Source of the DNA: an uncultured Chloroflexia bacterium
GTDB taxonomy: Bacteria > Chloroflexota > Anaerolineae > Anaerolineales > Anaerolineaceae
Direction of reading: 5' to 3'
Length of the DNA: 32,000 nt
NCBI GenBank assembly: GCA_963704755.1
Contig: OY969938.1
Location: 2,610,001-2,642,000, forward strand
The first letter of the stretch is position 1. The number at the start of each line of letters is the position of its first letter. Positions 1 to 31,059 of this stretch are shown one piece after another. The notes under the pieces were generated by a model. The model did no database searches. It was not told where the DNA came from and was given only the letters and a program-made list of their open reading frames with translations. Position numbers and translations under genes: made by a program.

Positions 1-1625
1 GGGTAGCTGACCACCAGTTCGCGAGTGTCGATATCACCGACCCGCATTGTAGCAGTGGAGCTTTTCTTTTCGATTACCGCCTTACGATAATCCTGTAAGG
101 AAACCACGCCGTGCAAACTGCCATCCAGGCTAATCACCGGAAAACCATGCCGCCCGGTGCGGATGAATTCATCCGACAACGCGCTGATCGGCAAATTGAC
201 CGGCACGGTATCCGGCTTGTGATCCATGACTTCCTCCACCCGGACCAATTCCATCACGTCCACGTCCTGGCCGTGATAGAGATGGATGCCCTGGCGGGTC
301 AATTTGAGGGTGTAAATGGAGTCTTTGTGCAGCCGCTCGGCGATAATAAAGCTGATGATCACGCTGGCCATCAACGGCAGGATCATGCGATAGTCGTTGG
401 TCATCTCCAGTACGATCAGAATGGCGGTAAAAGGCGCCCGCGCGGCAGCCGCAAAAACAGCAGCCATACCCACCACGGCAAATGCGCCGGCCCCTGCGGT
501 CGCGCTGGGGAACAAGTGCTCCATCAGGATACCGAAGGCCCCGCCCAAGGCAGCCCCGGAAAACAGCGAGGGGGCAAACACACCGCCCGAGTTTCCGGAC
601 CCCAGGGTAAAGGAAGTGGCTAACGGCTTGAGGAAGATGAGAAACACCAGCAACCAGAAGGAGAGGTTGCCCAGCAGCGCCGGTTGGATGGTGGTGAAAC
701 CTGCTCCAAAAATGTGGGGGAGGTTACTGATAATCGGCAAGCCCGCCATGGCCTGGTCTGGAGGCACCAATCCCTGGCTGAGAATGATGGGATAAATAAA
801 ACCGATCAAACCCAAACCCAGGCCGCCTACGGCGGGTTTAAGGGCATCCGGGAAATTCCAGTTATCGAAAATGTCCTCGAACTTGTACAGAATTTTAATG
901 AAGCCAACACCTACCAGAGCGGCCAGCACACCCAGCAGGGCGTACAAAATCAATTCCCAGGGCGTCTTTACGGTGTAAAGGGGGATCGAAAACGCGGGAT
1001 GATCGCCCAGGAAGATACGCGAAACGGTAGCAGCCGTGACCGACGAGAGCACCACGCTGCCCAGGTCACCCAGGTGAAATTCACCCAGGATGACCTCGGT
1101 CGCAAAAATCGTCCCGGCGATCGGGGCATTGAAGGTCGCCGCAATCCCGGCCGCCGAACCGCAGGCCACCAGGTTTCGGATGCGGTTATCGGATAGTTTT
1201 AACCACTGCCCGATCGTTGACCCGAGGGCTGCACCGACCTGTACGATAGGGCCTTCACGCCCGGCCGAACCGCCACTGCCGATACAAAGGGCAGAAGCCA
1301 CAATCTTGGCAGCCGCAACCCTGGGGCGGATCCGTCCGCCTTCGAGCGCGATGGCCTTCATTACTTCTGGAACGCCATGCCCTTTGGCCTCTTTGGCAAA
1401 GTAAGTGATAATCGGCCCGGCCAGCAAACCGCCTACCACAGGTACGATCACCAGCATCACCCGGCCAAGCGCAGAAAATGTTTCTCCGCCGGTTTGGAAA
1501 AAGAAATGTTGAACGATATCAATTAAACGAATAAAGACGACCGCTCCCAAGCCTGTCAGCAGGCCCAGAATCAATGACATACCCAGCAGGATAGTATGCT
1601 GCGAAAATTGCAGCTTTTCCACCAT
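1..1625 (-). CDS. ClC-family voltage-gated chloride channel with C-terminal CBS pair (3' end runs off the window)
   Basis: My own reverse-strand translation from ATG 1625 (MVEKLQFSQHTILLGMSLILGLLTGLGAVVFIRLID...) stays open to base 1. It contains the ClC signature GSGGSAGREGP (codons near 1250-1290) and GSGNSGGVFAPS. CBS-like modules follow (VMDHKPDTVPVNL...GFPVISLDGSLHGVVSLQDY). It is absent from the ORF track only because its stop lies outside the window. Confidence 0.85.
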   Translation of the reverse strand, partial: MVEKLQFSQHTILLGMSLILGLLTGLGAVVFIRLIDIVQHFFFQTGGETFSALGRVMLVIVPVVGGLLAGPIITYFAKEAKGHGVPEVMKAIALEGGRIRPRVAAAKIVASALCIGSGGSAGREGPIVQVGAALGSTIGQWLKLSDNRIRNLVACGSAAGIAATFNAPIAGTIFATEVILGEFHLGDLGSVVLSSVTAATVSRIFLGDHPAFSIPLYTVKTPWELILYALLGVLAALVGVGFIKILYKFEDIFDNWNFPDALKPAVGGLGLGLIGFIYPIILSQGLVPPDQAMAGLPIISNLPHIFGAGFTTIQPALLGNLSFWLLVFLIFLKPLATSFTLGSGNSGGVFAPSLFSGAALGGAFGILMEHLFPSATAGAGAFAVVGMAAVFAAAARAPFTAILIVLEMTNDYRMILPLMASVIISFIIAERLHKDSIYTLKLTRQGIHLYHGQDVDVMELVRVEEVMDHKPDTVPVNLPISALSDEFIRTGRHGFPVISLDGSLHGVVSLQDYRKAVIEKKSSTATMRVGDIDTRELVVSY

Positions 1626-2098
1626 CCATGCTATCCTTGCCTTTCTTGTTGAGACGCTTGCCTCCATATACTTCCTTTCAAAGCAAGATTGTAACAGAAC
1701 GGAAAAAGTAACTTCCCGGTTTCTTCAAGCTTGTTCTTAATGGTGTAAAAGAAGTCTGATAACTTCTTAGTTTTAAACCTGACCCATAAAATCTTGCCTG
1801 CGATAATATATAGATTCCCCGTCTCATATTCGCGGGCACGGATGCAAGAAAAAAATCTGTTACCATTAAAATCAGTCCTTACGTCCGCACCTGCTAACAT
1901 GAGTCCGGTAGGATTCCGGTTCAAGGTGACTTGCAGACTGTTAAAATATTATAAGACTGTTTGTACACAGTTTAATGCCTGATTTTAGGTTAATTTCGTC
2001 ACTTTTTGGGTAAAACCGGGGGTCCTGAGATAGGTAGTAGTTAATTAACCTATGCTATGACCAGAGGAGTACCGCACATATCCTGTTCCCTTCCCAGG

Positions 2099-2107
2099 TG
2101 ATATAAT
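2099..2107 (+). promoter_or_regulatory. Extended -10 promoter (TGaTATAAT) predicting a leaderless dsbA-like/dNK transcript
   Basis: TGATATAAT lies at 2099-2107, with only 6 nt (cgcgcc) before ATG 2114 and no Shine-Dalgarno in between. A transcription start about 7 nt after the -10 would fall on the ATG. Confidence 0.45.
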
Positions 2108-2113
2108 CGCGCC

Positions 2114-2917
2114 ATGAACGAAAATTTGACTCCTCGCGCTGATTCGACCCATTCACGGCGGTTGATCCGAAAGTCTGCGCCGCTATCCCCAGCAGTGGGT
2201 ATACTTCTTTTGGCCATCTTTTTCGGTTTTGGGGTAGGTACAGGTTACCTGGTCTGGGGCCGGCAGTTGGCCGCTGTCCAACTCCAATTAAGCCAGGCCA
2301 ACGGCAATTCAGCCGATAACCCGGTGGATGTGGCCCAACAAGGCACTGCGGATCCCAATGGAATCCAGCAGGTAACCCGCTACCCGGTCAGCGAGGATGA
2401 CGACCCGGTTTACGGGCCGGCCGATGCGCCTATTACGATCATCGAATTCAGTGACTTCGAATGTCCTTACTGCCTGAAATGGGAAAACGAAGTCTGGCCC
2501 CAGTTGAAAGAACAATACGCCGGGAAGATCCGCCTGGTATACCGCGATTTTCCGCTGGCCGGTCACGCCGATGCCAAACCGGCCGCCCTGGCCGCCGACT
2601 GCGCCAACGAGCAAGGCAAATACTGGGAATATCACGATTTGCTCTTCGATGGCGGCCTGACTCTCAGCCGCACTACGTATGAAACCTATGCCAGCCAGAT
2701 CGGCTTGAACATGGATAGCTTCCGCCAGTGTCTTGACGATCAGCGCTACGCCAGCGAGGTGGAGGGCGACCTGCAATACGCCGAAAACCTGGGGGTCCAG
2801 GCGACTCCCACCTTTTTCGTCAACGGCATCGCTGTAGTTGGCGCCCAACCCTTTGAAATCTTCAAAAATTTGATCGACGCAGAACTGGCCGGCAAACTTT
2901 CAAAGGGGACCAAATGA
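2114..2917 (+). CDS. Membrane-anchored DsbA-family thiol:disulfide oxidoreductase
   Basis: 267 aa. N-terminal TM helix (AVGILLLAIFFGFGVGTGYLVW), thioredoxin CxxC site FECPYC, and DsbA-like C-terminal half (GVQATPTFFVNG). Confidence 0.85.
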   Translation: MNENLTPRADSTHSRRLIRKSAPLSPAVGILLLAIFFGFGVGTGYLVWGRQLAAVQLQLSQANGNSADNPVDVAQQGTADPNGIQQVTRYPVSEDDDPVYGPADAPITIIEFSDFECPYCLKWENEVWPQLKEQYAGKIRLVYRDFPLAGHADAKPAALAADCANEQGKYWEYHDLLFDGGLTLSRTTYETYASQIGLNMDSFRQCLDDQRYASEVEGDLQYAENLGVQATPTFFVNGIAVVGAQPFEIFKNLIDAELAGKLSKGTK

Positions 2918-3576
2918 AAAAATTCATTGCCGTCGCCGGAAATATCGGCGTTGGCAAATCGACCCTGGTGCAGCTCTTGTGCGAACAGCTTGGCTGGGAG
3001 CCCTTTTTCGAGCCGGTCACCGGGAACCCCTACCTGGCTGATTTTTACGACAACATGTCCGCCTGGAGTTTTCATTCCCAGGTATTCTTCCTGACCCATC
3101 GCTTGCGCATCCACCAGCAAATTTTGCGCTTCGAAGGACCGGTCATCCAGGACCGCAGCATCTACGAGGACGCTGAAATCTTCGCTCACAACCTGGCCTT
3201 GCAGGGCAACATGAGCGAGCGTGATTACCAGACCTATTACGCGCTGTACCAGACCATTTCAGATTTTATTCCCCCACCCGACCTGGTGATTTACCTGCGG
3301 GCTTCGGTAAACACCCTCAAACAGCGCATTTCTCAACGCGACCGCTCCTACGAGCGGTCCATTTCTGCCGAATATTTAGGCGGCTTGAATGAGCTTTACG
3401 AGCAATGGATCCGCAACTTCACCATTTGCCCGGTCCTGACCGTGCCGGCCGATGACCTGGATTACGTCGCCCATCCTAATCACCTGGACCTGATCTTGAA
3501 GAAAGTGCAGGACAAACTCACCGGGAAAGAAGAAGTGGTCTTCCTGCCGGAAGAGATGAGCGAGCCGGAGATCTGA
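2914..3576 (+). CDS. Deoxynucleoside kinase (dNK family), paralog 1
   Basis: 220 aa. P-loop GNIGVGKST at the N-terminus, plus dNK-family blocks (FFEPV..NPYL..FY, DRSIYED, YLRASV..RISQRDRSYE). ATG 2914 overlaps the upstream stop (ATGA). Confidence 0.85.
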   Translation: MKKFIAVAGNIGVGKSTLVQLLCEQLGWEPFFEPVTGNPYLADFYDNMSAWSFHSQVFFLTHRLRIHQQILRFEGPVIQDRSIYEDAEIFAHNLALQGNMSERDYQTYYALYQTISDFIPPPDLVIYLRASVNTLKQRISQRDRSYERSISAEYLGGLNELYEQWIRNFTICPVLTVPADDLDYVAHPNHLDLILKKVQDKLTGKEEVVFLPEEMSEPEI

Positions 3577-3640
3577 GACCCAAGCCAGACCTATAGATAT
3601 GTCCTCGTTGAGCTTGCTCGAACCGGTGAAGGTTAACCCT

Positions 3641-3687
3641 AATTAGCGTTGTTTGTGGGCACAGAGAGTCCACAAACAACGCTAATT
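3641..3687. terminator. Long hairpin between convergent genes (probable bidirectional terminator)
   Basis: aattagcgttgtttgtgg (3641-3658) pairs perfectly with ccacaaacaacgctaatt (3670-3687): an 18-bp stem with an 11-nt loop, flanked by partially pairing ggttaacc. It lies between the dNK stop (3576) and the spoVS stop (3741). Confidence 0.5.
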
Positions 3688-3740
3688 GGTTAACTTGTTC
3701 AGGGGGTAAATATCTTGCCCCCTCTTTGATTCGCTACCCC

Positions 3741-4001
3741 TTAGCGAGGTTCGACAGTCAGCTTGATCGCTGTCCGCACTTTCCCATCAATGTCCACATC
3801 TACAAACTCGGGGATACAAACCACCGGTATGCCGTCTTCAGCTAGATAGCCTTTAGCCAACACCAACGCTTTGACAGCCTGATTTACGGCCCCTGCCCCA
3901 ATCGCCTGCACTTCGGCACGTTTATGTTCGCGTATTACGCCTGCTATCGCCCCTGCAACTGCAGCTGTTCGGGAGTTTGCTTTGACCTTGATGACGTCCA
4001 T
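3741..4001 (-). CDS. spoVS: Stage V sporulation protein S (SpoVS) family protein
   Basis: MDVIKVKANSRTAAVAGAIAGVIREHKRAEVQAIGAGAVNQAVKALVLAKGYLAEDGIPVVCIPEFVDVDIDGKVRTAIKLTVEPR is collinear with B. subtilis SpoVS as I recall it. The start was moved from the track's 4037 to ATG 4001 (86 aa), which has AGAAAGGAA upstream. Confidence 0.9.
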   Translation of the reverse strand: MDVIKVKANSRTAAVAGAIAGVIREHKRAEVQAIGAGAVNQAVKALVLAKGYLAEDGIPVVCIPEFVDVDIDGKVRTAIKLTVEPR

Positions 4002-4577
4002 GTCATGAATTCCTTTCTGTGATTGGTTCGATGTCAAGCAAACGATCTACGGAAATGTAATCATCTACTAAGTCTGTCGACATTGTACAAGAATTGCTAG
4101 ATAGTTACAAGTGCGCTGATAATGTACCAAAATATTACTATTCGTGATTCCATATGATGCAATAGGCTGCTTTCGTTCTTTTTTTTCCACAACCAGTAAA
4201 TTCTTAATCGTTTTTGCAGCCAGGCCCCTTTCTGCATAGTCTGGCCGGTATTTGCCTTCAAATCCAGGCAGGCCGGGTTGAAAAAACTGATTTGTTTTTG
4301 ACCAGGTCGATCCGCCAGTTGCAAAGTCCGTTTATCCGCATTTGCGCTGCGCTTCGATCACCAAAAATCCTGCACGTTTTGCTGTATAAGCGAGGTTCCA
4401 ACCCGGTGAACTGTTTTTCAACCAGAAAACAACCGGATCAGTCCAATTTCTGTTTAGAATTCGTCATAGCCGTAGCCATCCTTATCTTTATTTTGAATTT
4501 TAAGTTTGGCGGCCTGCTTTTGGGTTCATTATTCTTTCTCTTTATAAATATAAAGGAGTTGTAAACGTAGTAGGGGC

Positions 4578-4594
4578 TGTGGATATGTGGATAA
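4578..4594 (-). promoter_or_regulatory. Two abutting DnaA boxes (ATATCCACA and TTATCCACA on the minus strand)
   Basis: The plus strand reads tgtggataTgtggataa. It is preceded by GGGGC (4573-4577), TAGTAG (4568-4573) and the AT-rich tract. Confidence 0.6.
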
Positions 4595-4758
4595 AGCTGC
4601 GCAATTCAGTAATACCGGAATATATGGGGATCTCTAAATGGTTTACCCCCACTTCTAGGATAGAAAAACTGTTCCTTTATGAGAGCGAGCCTGTGGAGAA
4701 ATTTTTTCCAGAAAACACATTATCCACCTCCTCCACAGGGAAAATGATATACAGGCCT

Positions 4759-4800
4759 ACAAAGGCAGCGACCCCCATATATGGGGGTCGCTGCCTTTGT
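4759..4800. repeat. Perfect 40-42 bp palindrome inside the DnaA-box region
   Basis: caaaggcagcgaccccca-tata-tgggggtcgctgcctttg. Every position from 4760 to 4799 pairs with its mirror, checked base by base. Confidence 0.9.
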
Positions 4801-8078: not shown

Positions 8079-8240
8079 GGCTACTATCCTTTCTTGATGG
8101 TTAATAAATCCTGTCGTAATGTTACGATGCCAAGAATAACATATTCCATCCCCGGGCTGTAGCGGTCGTTTGTCATAAATTCGGGCAGAATAAGTCACAT
8201 TTGTAACAGGAGGAGTTACTACTCAGGTTAATTCGGGAAT

Positions 8241-8303
8241 GAGGGGTGTTTTTTATTGTTTTTCGCGTACGAAGTACGCGAAAAACAATAAAAAACACCC
8301 CTC
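8241..8303. repeat. 63-nt perfect palindrome (30-bp stem, GAA loop), family P1 copy 1
   Basis: gaggggtgttttttattgtttttcgcgtac-gaa-gtacgcgaaaaacaataaaaaacacccctc, with all 30 pairs checked. It lies between mrp-like and ferredoxin genes, both on the minus strand. Confidence 0.9.
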
Positions 8304-15048: not shown

Positions 15049-15075
15049 TCGCCAAACCTCCTATTCGAAAATTAC

Positions 15076-15124
15076 TTTGGGTGTTTGTTTTGGGCGGCGT
15101 AGCCGCCCAAAACAAACACCCAAA
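15076..15124. repeat. 23-bp-stem perfect palindrome centred on GCGTAGC (family P2 copy 1)
   Basis: tttgggtgtttgttttgggcggc-gta-gccgcccaaaacaaacacccaaa. It lies directly upstream of the HAD gene start. Confidence 0.9.
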
Positions 15125-15190
15125 AATATTTTTGACCAAGCGCCAAGGTTTATTTTACCTCGAGAGCCGGGCGATTTTAGGCCATACGAG

Positions 15191-15362
15191 GGCGGATCAT
15201 CTATGTAGGGTGCGTTGATAACGCACCAATTTGTTTGGCTCCAAGCTGCTTCTTGGTTGAAAAAACCGTTTGGCCGAAATTTATCCGCTACCCCGTATAA
15301 ATAATTACAAAGCGTTTTGGTGCGTTGCCAACGCACCCTACATCCGCGCCGCACACGCGCCC
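15191..15362 (+). mobile_element. REPIN/MITE-like element copy 1 (two inverted GTAG-hairpin REPs about 110 nt apart)
   Basis: The left end is ggcggatcatctatGTAGggtgcgtt-gat-aacgcacc. The right end is ggtgcgtt-gcc-aacgcaccCTACatccgcgccgcacacgcgccc. The first 48 nt are identical to copy 2, and the interior is diverged. Confidence 0.65.
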
Positions 15363-15519: not shown

Positions 15520-15557
15520 CCTTATCCCTCCCAGGGAGAAGGCGGGGATGAGGGTGG
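15520..15557 (+). repeat. Solo degenerate copy of the polypyrimidine/polypurine hairpin plus GGATGAGGG motif (family C)
   Basis: ccttatccctcccagggagaaggcggggatgagggtgg. Compare ccttcccccttttagggggaaggccgggatgagggt in the 22-23 kb array. Confidence 0.6.
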
Positions 15558-15625: not shown

Positions 15626-15796
15626 GGCGGATCATCTATGTAGGGTGCGTTGATAACGCACCAATTTGTTTGGCGAAGAACAAAAATCGGGTAACAAAAC
15701 CCGTTTGGCTGCGTTTCCTTCCAACCCGGCACACATGATTACAAAGCGTTTTGGTGCGTTGCCAACGCACCTTACATCCGCGCCGCACACGCGCCC
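15626..15796 (+). mobile_element. REPIN/MITE-like element copy 2
   Basis: It has the same 48-nt left end and the same approximately 59-nt right end (one C/T difference in ...aacgcacc[c/t]tacat...) as copy 1, in the same orientation, 435 bp downstream. Confidence 0.65.
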
Positions 15797-19493: not shown

Positions 19494-20137
19494 AGCGGCG
19501 GTTCTTCTTCCGTTTTCACCAGCCCGTTACGTACGGCGATGAGAGCCGCCTGGGTGCGGCTGGTCACGCCGAGTTTAATGAAAATGTTGCTCACGTGTAC
19601 TTTGACCGTCTTTTCAGCGATGGATAACTCCAGGGCGATTTCCTTGTTGGAGCGGCCGCGGGCGATCTGGTGCAGAACGGCGGACTCGCGCTCGGTCAGG
19701 CTGTCGATGGAGGAGGCTTGCTCCTCACCGGCCGTCAGGCGCAGCGCCACCTGCCTGGAAAGCTGCACCTGCCCCGCGGCGGCGGCGTGAATCGCCCGGC
19801 ACAGTTCGTCCGAGCCGGTGTCTTTTAACAGGTACCCGGATGCCCCGGCGTGAATGGCCTGGTGAATGATGGCGTCGTCGAGTACGCTGGTCAGGATAAT
19901 GACTTCGCAGTCCGGCAGCGTCCGGCGGATGGCAGCGGTGGCTTCCAGCCCGTCCATAACCGGCATCAAAATGTCCATCAAGATGACGTCCGGGTGCAGC
20001 TTTTCGGCCTGCTCCAGCGCTTCTTTACCATTCGAAGCCTCTCCCACCACCGTTAAATCCGGATCGAATTTGAGATACATGCGCAGACCCTGGCGCACGA
20101 TGCCGTGGTCGTCTGCAATCAAGATACGGATCGCCAT
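19490..20137 (-). CDS. NarL/LuxR-family response regulator
   Basis: 215 aa. REC domain (ILIADDHGIVR...ILMDILMP) and LuxR HTH (LTERESAVLHQIARGRSNKEIALELSIAEKTVKVHVSNIFIKLGV). AAGGAG lies 6 nt upstream. There is an ATGA overlap with the kinase gene. Confidence 0.9.
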   Translation of the reverse strand: MAIRILIADDHGIVRQGLRMYLKFDPDLTVVGEASNGKEALEQAEKLHPDVILMDILMPVMDGLEATAAIRRTLPDCEVIILTSVLDDAIIHQAIHAGASGYLLKDTGSDELCRAIHAAAAGQVQLSRQVALRLTAGEEQASSIDSLTERESAVLHQIARGRSNKEIALELSIAEKTVKVHVSNIFIKLGVTSRTQAALIAVRNGLVKTEEEPPL

Positions 20138-20169
20138 TTTGGCTCCTTACTAAGCGATTATAACTTGCG

Positions 20170-21137
20170 TTTCCTCGGTTTAGAAACCCGAGCTACACAA
20201 TACCGTAGCCCGGCTTTCAAAGCCGGGGTCTGGAGACAGGCTTGGGTCTCGAATCCTGGTGATACCCCTCGGGTTAGAAACCCGAGCTACGTGCGGGTAC
20301 GTAGCCCGGCTTTCAAAGCCGGGGGGTCTGGAGACAGGCCTGGGACTCGAATCCCAGTGATACCCCTCGGGTTAGAAACCCGAGCTACGTGCCGGTACCG
20401 TAGCCCGGCTTTCAAAGCCGGGGGGTCTGGAGGCTGGCCCGGATGCCACCTTTCTGAGACGAGATTTCTGCAATTGTTAAACGCAAATCCTGGTGATACT
20501 ACACAATACCGTAGCCCGGCTTTCAAAGCCGGGGGGTCTGGAGGCGAGCCTGGGTCTCGAATCCCGGTGATACCTCTCGGGTTAGAAACCCGAGCTACGT
20601 GCGGGTACGTAGCCCGGCTTTCAAAGCCGGGGGGTCTGGAGGCGGGCCTGGATGCCACCATTCCGAGACGAGAAATCAAAAATTGTTAAACGCGAATCCC
20701 GGTGATACCTCTCGGGTTAGAAACCCGAGCTACGTGCGGGTACGTAGCCCGGCTTTCAAAGCCGGGGGGTCTGGAGGCGGGCCTGGATGCCACCATTCCG
20801 AGACGAGAAATCAAAAATTGTTAAACGCAAATCCCGGTGATACCTCTCGGGTTAGAAACCCGAGCTACACAATACCGTAGCCCGGCTTTCAAAGCCGGGG
20901 GGTCTGGAGGCTGGCCCGGATGTCACCTTTCTGAGACGAGATTTCTGCAATTGTTAAACGCAAATCCTGGTGATACCTCTCGGGTTAGAAACCCGAGCTA
21001 CATACCAATATCGTAGCCCGGCTTTCAAAGCCGGGGGGTCTGGAGACGGGCCTGGATGCCACCATTCCGAGACGAGAAGTCAACAATTGTTAAACTCGAA
21101 TCCTGGTGATACCTCTCGGGTTAGAAACCCGAGCTAC
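20170..21137. repeat. BIME-like mosaic array: 8 head-to-head REP-like hairpin doublets (…CTAC-N8-11-GTAG…) joined by short or long linkers
   Basis: Hairpin H2 (GTAG-cccggctt-tca-aagccggg) starts at 20205, 20301, 20400, 20511, 20609, 20744, 20877 and 21013. Hairpin H1 (ctcgggtt-aga-aacccgag-CTAC) precedes seven of these (it is absent before 20511) and one extra copy closes the array at about 21115. Unit lengths are 96-136 nt, not multiples of 3. Units 20576-20710 and 20711-20845 differ at 1 nt. Confidence 0.85.
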
Positions 21138-21347
21138 CCTTTCCAGACATTTTCTGATCGTACTGGCTAGCTACAAATCATTATAGTGTCTATTGGGGGC
21201 AGAACGACTAGGACCAAAGGCTTAGGCCGCTATAGACCTTCTCCAGTTGTACCGCCGGCCGGGCGCGACTATACTGCATATACAGTCTTTTCCCTTTACG
21301 AGAATCGCCCTTTTAAGGGAATTGCTAATCAACACAGGAGAGAACGC

Positions 21348-22007
21348 ATGAAAAAAGCTTCTATTGGTTTTATTTGGGTTTTGATCGCAGTCTTTTCAAT
21401 CGTCTTATCGGCTTGCGCAACGCAGGCTAATGCCAGCAACCCGACCGCAGCCCCCACCCAGGCGGATACGCCCGTCCCGGCGGCGACAACCGCCCCCCAG
21501 GCGACCGACATTGTCTCAACCCCGACCGCACCGGTAACCAGCCAACCCACCACGTTGGATAGCTACTCGGACCCGTTTTCCTACTGCGCGGCGGTCGGGA
21601 CGATCGATGCACCGGACGCGCGCTATACCGGCGATGCGGTACCGGATGTGGTCATCCAGGGCTACCTTAAGGCAGCCGGCCTGGAGAACAACGGCGAGCC
21701 GATTGAAATCCTGCAAAAGACGACCATCTGGCGCTGTATGGACAAATCGGTATATGTGTGCAATTTTGGCGCGAACCTGCCTTGCAATTCCAAGGCCAAT
21801 ACCGACAAAACGCCTACCCAGGCCATGAACGATTTCTGCACGGCTAACCCCGATTCGGATAGCATCCCGATGAGCGTGACCGGCCATTCGACGATCTATG
21901 ACTGGCACTGCGTCAAGGATACCCCCGAGCTGCTCGACCAGATCGACCAGGTCGATGCCGCCGGTTACCTGACGCGGATCTGGTACCAGCTCCAACCCGG
22001 GTCATAA
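21348..22007 (+). CDS. Secreted lipoprotein of unknown family (Thr/Pro/Ala linker plus 6-Cys C-terminal domain)
   Basis: The start was moved to ATG 21348 (AGGAGAG upstream). Signal peptide MKKASIGFIWVLIAVFSIVLSAC with lipobox L-S-A-C. A low-complexity linker is followed by a domain with 6 Cys. No homolog recognised. Confidence 0.7.
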   Translation: MKKASIGFIWVLIAVFSIVLSACATQANASNPTAAPTQADTPVPAATTAPQATDIVSTPTAPVTSQPTTLDSYSDPFSYCAAVGTIDAPDARYTGDAVPDVVIQGYLKAAGLENNGEPIEILQKTTIWRCMDKSVYVCNFGANLPCNSKANTDKTPTQAMNDFCTANPDSDSIPMSVTGHSTIYDWHCVKDTPELLDQIDQVDAAGYLTRIWYQLQPGS

Positions 22008-22022
22008 AAGTCCCCTCACCCC

Positions 22023-22056
22023 AAAACCTCTTCCGGAAACGGGAGAGGTTTTTTTA
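22023..22056 (+). terminator. Intrinsic terminator of the lipoprotein gene, built from a family-C hairpin
   Basis: aaaacctcttccg-gaaa-cgggagaggtttt followed by a T-run. It is preceded by cccctcacccc, the reverse orientation of the hairpin plus GGGTGAGGG module. Confidence 0.7.
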
Positions 22057-22059
22057 ACA

Positions 22060-23225
22060 ATGTTCCAAGCCTCATCCTAATCCGCCAGGGCGTTTGCCTG
22101 CCTGCCGCGCCCCTCACCTGACCTCTCCCCGCCGGGAATAGGAATTTTGCCGCGAAGGTGAGGCCAATGACCGATGAACGCGCGAAGCCAACAAATTCTT
22201 GCTCCTTCCCCCTTTTAGGGGGAAGGCCGGGATGAGGGTCTGCGCCGGCCCGCCAGGGCGTTTGCCTGCCTGCCGCGCCCCTCACCTGACCGCTCCCCGC
22301 CGGGAACTTTTCCGCGAAGGCGAGGCCAATGACCGGTGAACGCGCGAAGCCAACAAATTCTTGCTCCTTCCCCCTTTTAGGGGGAAGGCCGGGATGAGGG
22401 TCTGCGCAGGCCCGCCAGAGCGTTCGCCTGCCGGCTGCGCCCCTCACCTGACCTCTCCCCGCCGGGGACTTTTCCGCGAAGGTGAGGCCAATGACCGATG
22501 AACGCGCGAAGCCAACAAATTCTTGCTCCTTCCCCCTTTTAGGGGGAAGGCCGGGATGAGGGTCTGCGCCGGCCCGCCAGGGCGTTCGCCTGCCGGCTGC
22601 GCCCCTCACCTGACCTCTCCCCGCCGGGAACTTTTCCGCGAAGGTGAGGCCAATGACCGATGAACGCGCGAAGCCAACAAATTCTTGCTCCTTCCCCCTT
22701 TTAGGGGGAAGGCCGGGATGAGGGTCTGCGCCGGCCCGCCAGAGCGTTTGCCTGCCTGCCGCGCCCTTCACCTGACCTCTCCCCGCCGGGAATAGGAATT
22801 TTGCCGCGAAGGTGAGGCCAATGACCGATGAACGCGCGAAGCCAACAAATTCTTGCTCCTTCCCCCTTTTAGGGGGAAGGCCGGGATGAGGGTCTGCGCC
22901 GGCCCGCCAGGGCGTTTGCCTGCCGGCCGCGCCCCTCACCTGACCTCTCCCCGCCGGGGACTTTTCCGCGAAGGTGAGGCCAATGACCGATGAACGCGCG
23001 AAGCCAACAAATTCTTGCTCCTTCCCCCTTTTAGGGTGAAGGCCGGGATGAGGGTCTGCGCAGGCCCGCCAGGGCGTTTGCCTGCTGGCCGCGCCCCTCA
23101 CCTGACCTCGCCCCGCCGGGGACTTTTCCACGAAGGTGAGGCCAATGATTGATGCATGGGTAACGCCTACAAATTCTTACTCCTTCCCCCTTTTAGGGGG
23201 AAGGCCGGGATGAGGGTCAACGCAG
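22060..23225. repeat. Seven tandem copies of a 162/168-bp structured repeat
   Basis: Units start (ccgccag...) at 22082, 22250, 22412, 22574, 22736, 22904 and 23066. Each contains the hairpin ccttccccct-ttt-agggggaagg, the motif ccgggatgagggt, and an 8-bp long-range stem cctcacct...aggtgagg that encloses tcccc-gcc-gggga. Confidence 0.9.
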
Positions 23226-23269
23226 GCCGAACGAAGCAGATGTGGCTCGAACCAGGACCTTTGTGGAAT

Positions 23270-23309
23270 AAAAAGCCCTCATCCTAAATTATTGGGATGA
23301 GGGCTTTTT
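23270..23309 (-). terminator. Intrinsic (bidirectional) terminator after the MFS gene
   Basis: aaaaagccctcatcc-taaattattg-ggatgagggcttttt. The A/T runs on both sides make it usable on either strand. It begins 15 nt after the MFS stop. Confidence 0.7.
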
Positions 23310-23323
23310 AAATCCGTTCAGGA

Positions 23324-24823
23324 TTACTGTTTTTGTACTTCTGCTTCCTGGATGATGGGAACATCGGCCAGGGCGCTGCGGTCTTCTTTACCGCGCACGA
23401 ACGAGATCCCGGCCGCAATGATGACCAGCACCAGCGAGACCAGGAAAGCGTTGTGCATCCCGGCGACGAAGGCCTGCATCGGCGCCGAGCCCAGGCTGAC
23501 GTTGGTGCCGACGAACAACTGCATCATCACGTCTTTGGGCAGGCTGCTGGCGGCCACCGCCAGCGATAAGGCAAAGCTGGTAACCATACCGGCCTGGCGT
23601 AAGGTGGCCAGCGTACCCGAGGCGATCCCCAGACAATTCTTTGGTGAGGCGTTCATGACGGCGCTGGTGTTCGGAGGGAAGAACAGCCCGCCCCCAAAGC
23701 CCATGATGGCCAGGCCGGCGGCCAACTGCCAGTACGGGGTGGTGGGGGAGATGCGCATAAACCAGGCCAGCGCCACACCCTGGATCAACAGGCCAACGGT
23801 GGCAGGGATACGCGCGCCGATCCGGTCGGAGAGATTACCGCTCAACGGCGCTACGAAAGAGGTCACAATCGGCAGGGGAATCAGCAGCATCGCCGCTTTG
23901 AGCGGGTCGAACCCGCGTACGCCTTGCAGGTAAAACACGATCAGGAAGTTGACCGAGAACAGTGCCAGCGACTGCATCATTGCCGAGAGCACCGAGAAGT
24001 TGAAGATACGGTTGTTGAACAGCGACAGGTCCAACACCGGGTTCGTCGCGCGCCGTTCCCACCACAGGAAAACGATGATGCAGACCAGGAACACGAAGAA
24101 CATCACCACGATCGGGGTGGAGCTGAAGCTGTACTGGATGCCCAGGGTCAGGGCGGCCAGCAGGGCAGTGAGCCCGACACTGAAGCTGATGGCGCCGAGC
24201 ACGTCGAAAAACTCGCCGGCTTTATGCTGGGACATTTCTTTCAACGATATATAGCCCCACAGGGCGCCGAAGATACCCACCGGGACGTTGATGAAGAAGA
24301 TCCAGCGCCAGTCGGCGAAGGTCAGGATCACGCCGCCCAGGATAGGGCCAAGTACGCCCCCGATGGAAAAGGTAATGGCGTTGATGCCCAGGGCCTTGCC
24401 GCGCTCGTTGGCCGGGAAGACCTCGGTCAGCAAAGCCACGCTGTTGACCACCATCATGGCCGCGCCGCTGCCCTGGATAAGCCGGAAAATGATCAGGTGG
24501 GCGGCCGTGGTGGAAAAACCACACAACGCCGAGCCAACGGTGAAGATCACAAAGCCAAGGTTGTACAGCCGCACCCGGCCGAGCATATCGGCCACGCGAC
24601 CGAATGTCAGCAGGAAGACCGTGCTGATCAAGATATAGCCCATAATCACCCAGATCATTTCGATCAGGTTGGCGTGCAGCTTGACCATCATATCCGGCAG
24701 GCCAAGGATCACAATCGTGCTGTCGATCGAAGCCATCAGCGCACCGATGGTCGTTACGCTCAGGACGATCCATTTATATTCAACCACTTTACCAAATAAT
24801 TTATAAGTTTTGGTTGCTTCCAT
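23324..24823 (-). CDS. MFS transporter, DHA2 (EmrB/QacA-like, 14-TM) drug:H+ antiporter family
   Basis: 499 aa, hydrophobic throughout. Motif-A-like GRVADMLGRVRLY after TM2 and a length typical of 14-TM DHA2 members. Confidence 0.85.
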   Translation of the reverse strand: MEATKTYKLFGKVVEYKWIVLSVTTIGALMASIDSTIVILGLPDMMVKLHANLIEMIWVIMGYILISTVFLLTFGRVADMLGRVRLYNLGFVIFTVGSALCGFSTTAAHLIIFRLIQGSGAAMMVVNSVALLTEVFPANERGKALGINAITFSIGGVLGPILGGVILTFADWRWIFFINVPVGIFGALWGYISLKEMSQHKAGEFFDVLGAISFSVGLTALLAALTLGIQYSFSSTPIVVMFFVFLVCIIVFLWWERRATNPVLDLSLFNNRIFNFSVLSAMMQSLALFSVNFLIVFYLQGVRGFDPLKAAMLLIPLPIVTSFVAPLSGNLSDRIGARIPATVGLLIQGVALAWFMRISPTTPYWQLAAGLAIMGFGGGLFFPPNTSAVMNASPKNCLGIASGTLATLRQAGMVTSFALSLAVAASSLPKDVMMQLFVGTNVSLGSAPMQAFVAGMHNAFLVSLVLVIIAAGISFVRGKEDRSALADVPIIQEAEVQKQ

Positions 24824-24885
24824 AAAAATTCGCTTTACTCCTAAAGTATTTTTTTCCGTGAGTACTCAAGCTAGTCCGGTAATTA

Positions 24886-24942
24886 GGGGTGTTTTTATTG
24901 TTTTTCGCGTGCGAAGCACGCGAAAAACAATAAAAACACCCT
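24886..24942. repeat. Palindrome family P1 copy 2 (26-bp stem, GAA loop)
   Basis: gggtgtttttattgtttttcgcgtgc-gaa-gcacgcgaaaaacaataaaaacaccc. It is homologous to 8241-8303 with mirrored differences. Confidence 0.9.
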
Positions 24943-27250: not shown

Positions 27251-27295
27251 TTTTGAGTGTTATTGTGGGGCGTAGCCCCACAATAACACTCAAAA
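27251..27295. repeat. 21-bp-stem perfect palindrome centred on GCGTAGC (family P2 copy 2)
   Basis: ttttgagtgttattgtggggc-gta-gccccacaataacactcaaaa, in the divergent MarR/MCP intergenic region. Confidence 0.9.
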
Positions 27296-29818: not shown

Positions 29819-29861
29819 ATAACCAGGGCTTGAGGGTACTACTCAGCTTCTAGAAAAGAAT

Positions 29862-29925
29862 GAGGTGGTTTGATTGTTTATCGCGTGTTTTTACGCGACA
29901 AACAATCAAACCACCTCTGTTTTTT
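29862..29925 (+). terminator. Palindrome (diverged P1 family member) acting as terminator for convergent MCP and pirin genes
   Basis: gaggtggtttgattgtttatcgcgt-gttttt-acgcgacaaacaatcaaaccacctc (one A/C mismatch), followed by tgtttttt. T-rich sequence also follows it on the minus strand. Confidence 0.7.
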
Positions 29926-31020: not shown

Positions 31021-31059
31021 GCCCTCCCCCCAACCCCTCTCCCAGAAGCGGGAGAGGGG
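31021..31059 (-). repeat. Solo family-C element (hairpin cccctctccc/gggagagggg plus G-rich tail, reverse orientation)
   Basis: gccctccccccaa-cccctctccc-agaagc-gggagagggg. It gives the typical spurious 'PLPEAGEG' ORF translation. Confidence 0.7.

Follow-up and report, generated by a model that had tools for sequence, protein, structure and literature searches.

A stretch of 32 000 nt from an uncultured Chloroflexia bacterium (assembly GCA_963704755.1, contig OY969938.1, positions 2,610,001 to 2,642,000 of the forward strand; the whole stretch is referred to as the window) carries an array of seven repeats of 162 or 168 bp between two convergent genes, at positions 22076-23221 of the window. 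The array is most probably a lineage-specific, non-coding tandem amplification (a minisatellite) of a pair of triplex motifs, with a build like that of the bacterial interspersed mosaic elements (BIMEs). Each unit combines a 36-nt motif, which follows the sequence rule of the BoxC/PIT/TM family, with a truncated and inverted second copy of that motif. An open reading frame (ORF) of 371 codons that runs through the array on the minus strand is an accident and not a gene.

The array and its units

At 22082-23218, Tandem Repeats Finder reported 6.9 copies of a repeat whose period is 162 bp, with 93 % matches. With the hairpin of each copy used as the anchor for the boundaries, seven head-to-tail units were delimited: u1 (22076-22243, 168 bp), u2 (22244-22405, 162 bp), u3 (22406-22567, 162 bp), u4 (22568-22729, 162 bp), u5 (22730-22897, 168 bp), u6 (22898-23059, 162 bp) and a diverged edge unit, u7 (23060-23221, about 162 bp). 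The unit alignments and Tandem Repeats Finder agree with an earlier examination of the letters alone (the sequence-only reading), which had placed seven tandem 162/168-bp repeats here. Its estimate of 93-99 % likeness between units holds for u1 to u6, with pairwise identities of 94.4-98.8 %, but is too high for u7, which is 86-90 % identical to the others. The only length variant is an insertion of 6 nt common to u1 and u5, as had been seen before, and in the alignment the unit variants are distributed among the copies in a mosaic pattern.

Two other descriptions of the array were considered and rejected. Tandem Repeats Finder also offered a period of 492 bp (three units), but with the 168-bp units four apart and a mosaic of shared variants there is no clean higher-order repeat. 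A CRISPR array does not fit either, since the stretches between the 36-nt modules are 94-99 % identical across units and are not unique spacers.

The conserved core and its solo copies

The 36-nt motif on the plus strand of each unit, module A, reads CCTTCCCCCT-ttt-AGGGGGAAGG-ccg-GGATGAGGGT and is made up of a hairpin and, after it, a purine block in mirror order to the hairpin's purine arm. It lies at 22204-22239 in u1 and at 22366-22401, 22528-22563, 22690-22725, 22858-22893, 23020-23055 and 23182-23217 in u2 to u7. When the third block is set antiparallel to the purine arm, G.G, A.A or T.A is found at nine of the ten positions; the triad scan of the u1 copy likewise gave nine allowed triads of ten and one A.G:C mismatch. 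The 10-bp hairpin followed by ccgggatgagggt, described in the sequence-only reading, can be seen in each of the seven units, in u6 with one G>T mismatch. ccgggatgagggt is not a separate box but the third strand that mirrors the purine arm.

The 23-nt hairpin CCTTCCCCCTTTTAGGGGGAAGG has 13 matches in the window with up to three mismatches, compared with none in 100 shuffles. A triad scan with an in-house, ITxF-style implementation (stem of at least 8, at most one bad triad, loops of 1-6 nt) detected exactly 10 motifs in 32 kb, namely the seven array modules (stem 10, one mismatch, loops of 3 and 3) and three solo copies, while the mean for mononucleotide shuffles was 0.025. The solo at 15520-15555 (plus strand; CCTTATCCCT-ccc-AGGGAGAAGG-cgg-GGATGAGGGT) belongs to the module A subtype and is the only one that resembles module A in sequence (80.6 % over 36 nt). 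Its purine arm, AGGGAGAAGG, allows all ten Hoogsteen positions, and there is one Watson-Crick mismatch. The other two, at 22013-22048 (minus strand; CCTCTCCC-gtttcc-GGAAGAGG-ttttgg-GGTGAGGG) and 31022-31059 (minus strand; CCCCTCTCCC-gcttct-GGGAGAGGGG-tt-GGGGGGAGGG), are of the canonical subtype CCCTCTCCC/GGGAGAGGG/GGGTGAGGG, and the latter is also the sole canonical G-quadruplex pattern in the window. It had been proposed that the array is an expanded satellite of an element with solo copies at 15520, 22010 and 31021. The array is indeed best described as a non-coding expanded satellite, and one structural rule covers all of the copies, but the solos share with it the 36-nt module alone and not the 162-bp unit.

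Papers on the motif were reached through a literature search for GGGTGAGGG together with GGGAGAGGG; a search for GGGATGAGGG returned primer noise only. Holder et al. 2015 (PMC4666352) treat the dispersed intergenic repeat BoxC, later named the PIT element, as the 'TM' or 'TMECO' motif, with the consensus CCCTCNCCC N3-6 GGGNGAGGG N3 GGGNGAGGG. The ITxF class II rule given there asks for a pyrimidine (Y) arm, a purine (R) arm and a third block in succession on the same strand, with Watson-Crick pairs plus G.G:C, A.A:T or T.A:T triads; the stem has 6-15 nt, no more than one triad may be mismatched, and each loop has 1-6 nt (PMC4666352). By this rule, module A is a putative class II purine intrastrand triplex motif of the BoxC/PIT/TM type. 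The ITxF test of location gave the same answer, the array being intergenic and between two terminators. The strict TMECO regular expression had no match on either strand of the window and a relaxed version matched only 31022-31058. The canonical G-quadruplex pattern did not match the array copies, which hold only three G3 tracts on the plus strand. To judge by its letters, the array module is a variant within the family and not a copy of the E. coli consensus.

Module A is the least variable part of the unit. Only one of its 36 columns varies, compared with 32 of the 126 columns elsewhere in the unit (Fisher p=0.0018), and the differences that set the edge unit u7 apart spare it altogether (0/36 vs 18/126, p=0.014). 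This low variability fits the conservation of the motif across phyla and may be due to constraint, to biased conversion or to the history of the units.

An inverted second motif in each unit

The order within each unit is a 36-nt linker, an inverted and 5'-truncated motif within an 8-bp outer stem, a 40-nt linker and the complete forward 36-nt motif. The inverted motif, module B, reads CCTCACCT...TCCCC-ggc-GGGGAGAGG-tca-GGTGAGGGG on the minus strand. It was delimited at 22111-22163 in u1 from the listing of boxes and hairpins, the fold and the pair counts, and lies at 22279-22325, 22441-22487, 22603-22649, 22765-22817, 22933-22979 and 23095-23141 in u2 to u7, always on the minus strand. As read from the sequence, its purine mirror repeat is complete (9/9) and its pyrimidine arm is down to 5 bp; the third block pairs instead with the upstream CCTCACCT, which gives the 8-bp outer stem. 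Both this outer stem (cctcacct...aggtgagg) and the inner hairpin (tcccc-gcc-gggga), already picked out in the sequence-only reading, are present in the minimum-free-energy fold, with the inner hairpin one pair short in four of the seven units (GGGAA, not GGGGA). Modules B (minus strand) and A (plus strand) thus alternate seven times along the array.

BIME-2 elements of enterobacteria are extragenic tandem clusters of repetitive extragenic palindromic (REP) modules, which alternate in orientation, are joined by two linkers and lie at the 3' ends of genes. The array has the same build, as an extragenic tandem cluster of alternating modules with two alternating linkers at gene 3' ends. It differs from BIME-2 and from the REPs associated with REP-associated tyrosine transposases (RAYTs) in the greater length of the unit (162 bp) and in the lack of GTAG in its modules; neither GTAG nor CTAC occurs anywhere in the 162-bp unit.

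Genomic setting and relatives elsewhere

Two convergent genes flank the array, which takes up the gap between them and sits exactly between their terminators. The gene on the left (21348-22007, plus strand, 219 aa) encodes a conserved lipoprotein-like protein with its real start at MKKAS; 959 homologs were found, mostly in Anaerolineales/Chloroflexi metagenomes, the best of them 63-77 % identical. The gene on the right (23324-24823, minus strand) encodes a major facilitator superfamily (MFS) transporter (Pfam MFS_1, E 5e-49). The left border of the array is the intrinsic terminator of the lipoprotein-like gene at 22023-22055 (plus strand), which folds at -20.3 kcal/mol (z -4.4) and is followed by UUUUUUU; it is made up of the hairpin of the solo motif at 22013-22048 and a T-run on the plus strand. 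The right border is an inverted repeat at 23269-23310, with arms CCCTCATCC / GGATGAGGG and A- or T-runs on each side, which forms a bidirectional intrinsic terminator (-32.6 and -29.9 kcal/mol, z about -8) and ends the MFS gene on the minus strand. A consensus terminator scan of 19900-23500 gave 0 sites, with a mean of 5.6 in its own shuffles, and was disregarded since folding shows two strong terminators there.

Promoter-like sites were recounted independently of that combined terminator/promoter scan. A single weak sigma-70-like match (8/12) was found in 1.33 kb, compared with 4.5 per kb window-wide, and the array is presumably little transcribed. Among 30 ORFs of the window scanned against Pfam, no gene resembling a mobile element or a transposase was found; the genes are ordinary chromosomal ones.

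The array was not seen in relatives. The nearest syntenic loci carry genes for a histidine kinase, a response regulator and a lipoprotein-like protein, with a nucleotide identity of 72-77 %, have no tandem repeats and differ in the genes downstream. The 162-bp unit was not found outside the window by protein search, by megablast against plasmids or by a metagenome scan for a unit-specific 22-mer. Because the syntenic relatives are without the array and the unit is unique to the window, the array points to a lineage-specific insertion or expansion.

The 36-nt motif itself was found in several phyla. A pattern scan detected it in 39 stretches of reference genomes, with hosts among the Anaerolineae (including a plasmid of Leptolinea sp. 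HRD-7), Beta- and Gammaproteobacteria, Bradyrhizobium, Acetothermia and one Christensenellaceae metagenome-assembled genome (MAG), and a slightly degenerate pattern detected it in at least 120 metagenome stretches. In BLAST comparisons, similarity to other loci was confined to the motif (about 36-40 nt), and the 36-nt motif alone matched between the window and the Anaerolineae loci. Over all loci, a GGG(N)TGAGGG box directly follows a hairpin in 76 of 85 cases, while 177 related motifs have 62 different first loops. The motifs lie in long stop-free stretches in 37 % of cases, compared with 78 % for random positions.

Some of these relatives are also tandemly repeated. The Leptolinea sp. HRD-7 plasmid has motif-bearing arrays with periods of about 200, 219 and 337, one of which is intergenic and has a unit that matches 20 places on the plasmid. 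The other motif-bearing tandem arrays found have periods of 181 bp in Bradyrhizobium cenepequi, 123 bp in an Enterobacterales MAG and 86 bp in a gammaproteobacterial MAG. Recurrence of such arrays is real but uncommon, in a sample that is biased in both directions.

Two further loci were recorded in the course of these comparisons. The same Leptolinea plasmid (AP024711) holds, at 1480-4483 of the stretch retrieved as L015, a CRISPR-like array with the repeat GTCGCCCCCCACGCGGGGGCGTGGATTGAAAT, a period of 65-67 bp and differing spacers, about 3 kb from a tandem array that bears the triplex motif. A metagenome contig (L146) has a two-copy tandem repeat with a period of 162 bp at 4448-4766, without BLAST similarity to the window unit there, and 39 nt at 1849-1887 that are 87 % similar to the module B region; the likeness in period is probably a coincidence.

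Origin of the array

The proposed origin begins with an inverted motif pair in the gap between the terminators of the two convergent genes, which would have been duplicated and then expanded to seven copies through replication slippage, template switching and unequal recombination, all of which hairpin- and triplex-forming DNA is expected to favour. In a single strand, the third block could come to lie along the purine arm of the folded hairpin, in G.G:C, A.A:T and T.A:T triads. Exchange between units would hold the inner copies at 94-99 % identity while the edge unit drifts, and both the degeneracy of that edge unit and the mosaic of shared variants fit such satellite dynamics. This course of amplification is suggested by general knowledge of structure-prone repeats and by the instability described for the motif (PMC4666352). 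Any function of the array would lie at the level of DNA; it might, for instance, keep convergent transcription units apart as a structure-prone spacer or barrier.

Several points weigh against this interpretation. The TM triplex has been shown in vitro only, and footprinting in vivo gave no support for a stable triplex (PMC4666352). The array module has one mismatched triad, outside the strict TMECO consensus, and this A.G:C mismatch may weaken a triplex. The low variability of module A could reflect selection on function rather than conversion or recent origin. The period of the array is a multiple of 3 and its indel is 6 nt long, which is taken as a coincidence of about 1 in 9 and is not explained. 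That the array gives no product is something we infer. Lastly, long-period arrays with the motif in them were absent from all 120 metagenome loci, which leaves the link between motif and amplification statistically weak; this test is biased, because short-read assemblies tend to collapse such arrays.

Of the rival explanations, an element served by a transposase carries the most weight, followed by a structured RNA and then by a repeat protein. In the first of these, the array would be a REP/BIME-like cluster spread by a dedicated enzyme, either a RAYT-type or an IS200/IS605-type single-strand transposase, with the hairpin and box as a protein site and not a triplex. The BIME-2-like build is consistent with such an origin (palindromic modules alternating in orientation, two kinds of linker, tandem, extragenic), and the stems and box conserved across phyla, with the loops free, would suit a site recognised by a protein. 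GTAG next to a hairpin is the signature of RAYT-associated REPs, and true GTAG-type REP doublets occur in the window at 15203-15343 and 15638-15777, as does an array of REP doublets at 20173-21137. The motif and a GTAG hairpin are also found within one repeat unit on the Leptolinea plasmid and in a second locus, L030. However, the 162-bp unit is itself without GTAG or CTAC, no transposase-like gene is among the 30 ORFs scanned and the linkers are identical in all units, which argues for duplication of whole units and not for repeated insertion. In E. coli the motif has no association with mobile elements (PMC4666352). On balance, this explanation appears unlikely.

Folding and the question of a structured RNA

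A second alternative is that the array consists of structured non-coding RNA units (a repetitive small RNA or scaffold RNA) made from one strand, with the hairpins as RNA structure. Each unit has several hairpins, and over the seven units 95.7 % of the cells in the three stems named above are paired. Whole-unit folding gave z -1.9 for the plus strand and -2.3 for the minus strand when compared with shuffles, a modest gain, and the forward motif is kept above the background of the unit. The variation among the units does not point the same way. Covariation in the proposed stems was absent: there is no compensatory change among the seven units, and seven unpaired cells break the stems. A variant in u2 had been taken as a weak hint of structure on the minus strand; it is offset by a C>T change in CCTCACCT of u5, for which the G-U pair falls on the plus strand and the A-C mismatch on the minus strand. 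Because the u2 and u5 variants favour opposite strands, there is no strand signal.

Rfam gave 0 matches at the gathering score in the whole window. With E up to 10, the array had one chance-level match, to mir-1227 (E 1.9, 22 bits compared with a gathering score of 70). On each side a strong terminator is turned towards the array, promoter-like sites are few, the 162-bp unit was found in this genome only and purine-motif triplexes do not form in RNA (PMC4666352). The sequence-only reading had left a structured RNA open. That option survives as quite an improbable one, which neither an Rfam match, nor covariation, nor a promoter-like site supports, and the array is better read as non-coding DNA.

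The open frame through the array

The 371-codon frame with a GTG start at 22016-23131 on the minus strand, reported in the sequence-only reading, is present and open through the array, and a 307-aa version of it is called as a gene in the source genome. A real Arg/Gly/Pro/Ala-rich repeat protein of 371 or 307 aa is nevertheless highly improbable, and this option, also left open earlier, is set aside on the evidence of codon signatures, substitutions, shuffles and the homolog search. In its favour, the frame is open in every unit, the lengths of period and indel can both be divided by 3 and the gene caller annotated the 307-aa product. However, at least one of six frames is open around the circularised unit in 83 % of mononucleotide-shuffled units and 87 % of the window's other 162-mers, so that the open frame in the array carries no weight. 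The periods of related arrays elsewhere (181, 199, 202, 218 and 337) are not multiples of 3.

Codon composition also differs from that of genes. GC content by codon position is flat in the ORF (0.67/0.60/0.66) compared with about 0.6/0.41/0.76 in eleven real genes of the window. Scored by window codon usage, the ORF has a log-likelihood of -4.29 in frame, which is indistinguishable from the -4.33 to -4.56 of the other five frames, while the in-frame values of real genes are -3.6 to -4.0, compared with about -4.6 to -5.0 out of frame. Substitutions between units are spread 5:7:6 over the codon positions. A recount gave 3 synonymous and 12 non-synonymous changes, close to the earlier count by hand, with a neutral expectation of 26 % synonymous.

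The start and the surroundings of the frame are no more gene-like. As had been noted, the GTG was created by a point variant, a G>A change specific to the edge unit u7 (CCACGAAGG vs CCGCGAAGG), and the 19 nt upstream of it, AATCATTGGCCTCACCTTC, have no Shine-Dalgarno-like stretch. The frame also crosses the terminator hairpin of the neighbouring lipoprotein-like gene. A search of 5.8 billion proteins found no homolog beyond the window's own 307-aa gene call, and there was no match in Pfam or NCBIfam.

Other repeats in the window

An unrelated tandem array of about eight units, with periods of 98 and 135 bp, lies at 20173-21137 in the divergent promoter region between the response-regulator and lipoprotein-like genes. 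Each unit has two hairpins flanked by CTAC and GTAG (…CTCGGGTTAGAAACCCGAGCTAC…GTAGCCCGGCTTTCAAAGCCGGG…), a REP-doublet (BIME-like) build. The intergenic region is 1210 bp long here, compared with about 170 bp in the syntenic relatives. Rfam gave weak tRNA-Sec-like matches only (28 bits compared with a gathering score of 47), and ARAGORN found no tRNA in this array.

Two copies of a REPIN-like doublet, at 15191-15345 and 15626-15780, are 435 bp apart and lie on either side of the solo motif at 15520-15555. Their arms, ATGTAGGGTGCGTTGATAACGCACCAA / TTGGTGCGTTGCCAACGCACCCTACAT, are inverted and 86-87 nt apart, with GTAG beside the hairpin. No RAYT-like gene was found among the window ORFs scanned against Pfam.

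Long, near-perfect palindromes are present at 8241-8303, 15065-15135, 24887-24941, 27251-27295 and 29854-29925, at or between gene ends. Their stems are 21-34 bp long and their loops 3-6 nt (for example GGGTGTTTTTATTGTTTTTCGCGTGC/GCACGCGAAAAACAATAAAAACACCC). In some of them the 5' flank is conserved (8215-8262 and 24858-24905, 75 %), and they look like a further dispersed repeat or terminator family.

Comparison with known systems and significance

Bacterial minisatellites or variable number tandem repeats (VNTRs), such as the mycobacterial interspersed repetitive units (MIRUs), are intergenic head-to-tail arrays with units of tens to hundreds of bp. The array is likewise intergenic and head-to-tail, with units that are alike and a degenerate edge copy, and variation in copy number is to be expected. 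It differs from MIRUs in that its units are built on structure-prone triplex and hairpin motifs and have no translational coupling to the flanking genes.

The closest likeness is to the BoxC/PIT/TM motif. Holder et al. counted 3610 occurrences of it in 262 genomes of proteobacteria. All of its E. coli sites are intergenic and 5 of the 18 have inverted pairs; the stems are conserved there, and the loops vary. The motif has no promoter or terminator activity and is associated with raised local genome variability (PMC4666352). The array motif shares the succession of pyrimidine arm, loop, purine arm, loop and mirror purine block, and its second loop CCG and third block ending in TGAGGG are those of TMECO type B (compare CCCTCTCCCTGTGGGAGAGGGCCGGGGTGAGGGC, Table 1 of PMC4666352). 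Like the known motif, it is intergenic, has dispersed copies, conserved stems, free loops and inverted pairs, and lies at a locus that differs from that of relatives. It is unlike TMECO in its 10-nt stem, its purine pattern (AGGGGGAAGG/GGATGAGGGT) and its A.G:C triad. The host, an Anaerolineales-like (Chloroflexota) genome, is also neither a proteobacterium nor a cyanobacterium. Furthermore, the motif pair and its linkers have been amplified seven times as a 162-bp unit, whereas 'tandem inverted' pairs only are described in PMC4666352.

A BoxC-type sequence of E. coli has also been read as a G-quadruplex-hairpin-duplex switch motif (Kaplan et al., NAR 2016, PMC5100583). The array resembles that motif in having G-rich blocks beside a hairpin, and the four-G3-tract pattern is found in the solo copy at 31022-31043; the array copies, with three such tracts on the plus strand, do not show it.

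The dispersed triplex motif and bacterial minisatellites are both known already. The lineage of the host is new, as are the variant of the stem and the fact that the motif pair has been amplified in tandem as a 162-bp mosaic unit. The result is modest, an ordinary though tidy case. For annotation, it means that the 307/371-aa "hypothetical protein" across the array should go, and other Arg/Gly/Pro-rich ORFs of this kind, where they run over BoxC-type motifs elsewhere, are probably also spurious. With this array, the range of the BoxC/PIT/TM triplex motif comes to include an Anaerolineales-like genome, in which the array of inverted pairs is to this motif what BIME-2 is to REPs. The locus, a neutral gap flanked by two terminators and occupied by seven near-identical units, would be suited to measurement of rates of expansion and contraction.

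A wider proposal, which seems rather unlikely at present, is that BoxC-type motifs nucleate tandem amplification as a general mechanism for the birth of long-period bacterial minisatellites in unrelated phyla, and/or that such arrays are kept as structure-prone DNA barriers between transcription units. Arrays in Chloroflexota (here and on the Leptolinea plasmid), Bradyrhizobium and Enterobacterales may be instances of such a mechanism. If the arrays are recurrent, they would be a testable signature of the "genomic instability" that Holder et al. tied to these motifs without a mechanism. If the proposal is true, the conservation of the motif in the drifting edge unit would reflect selection on DNA structure.

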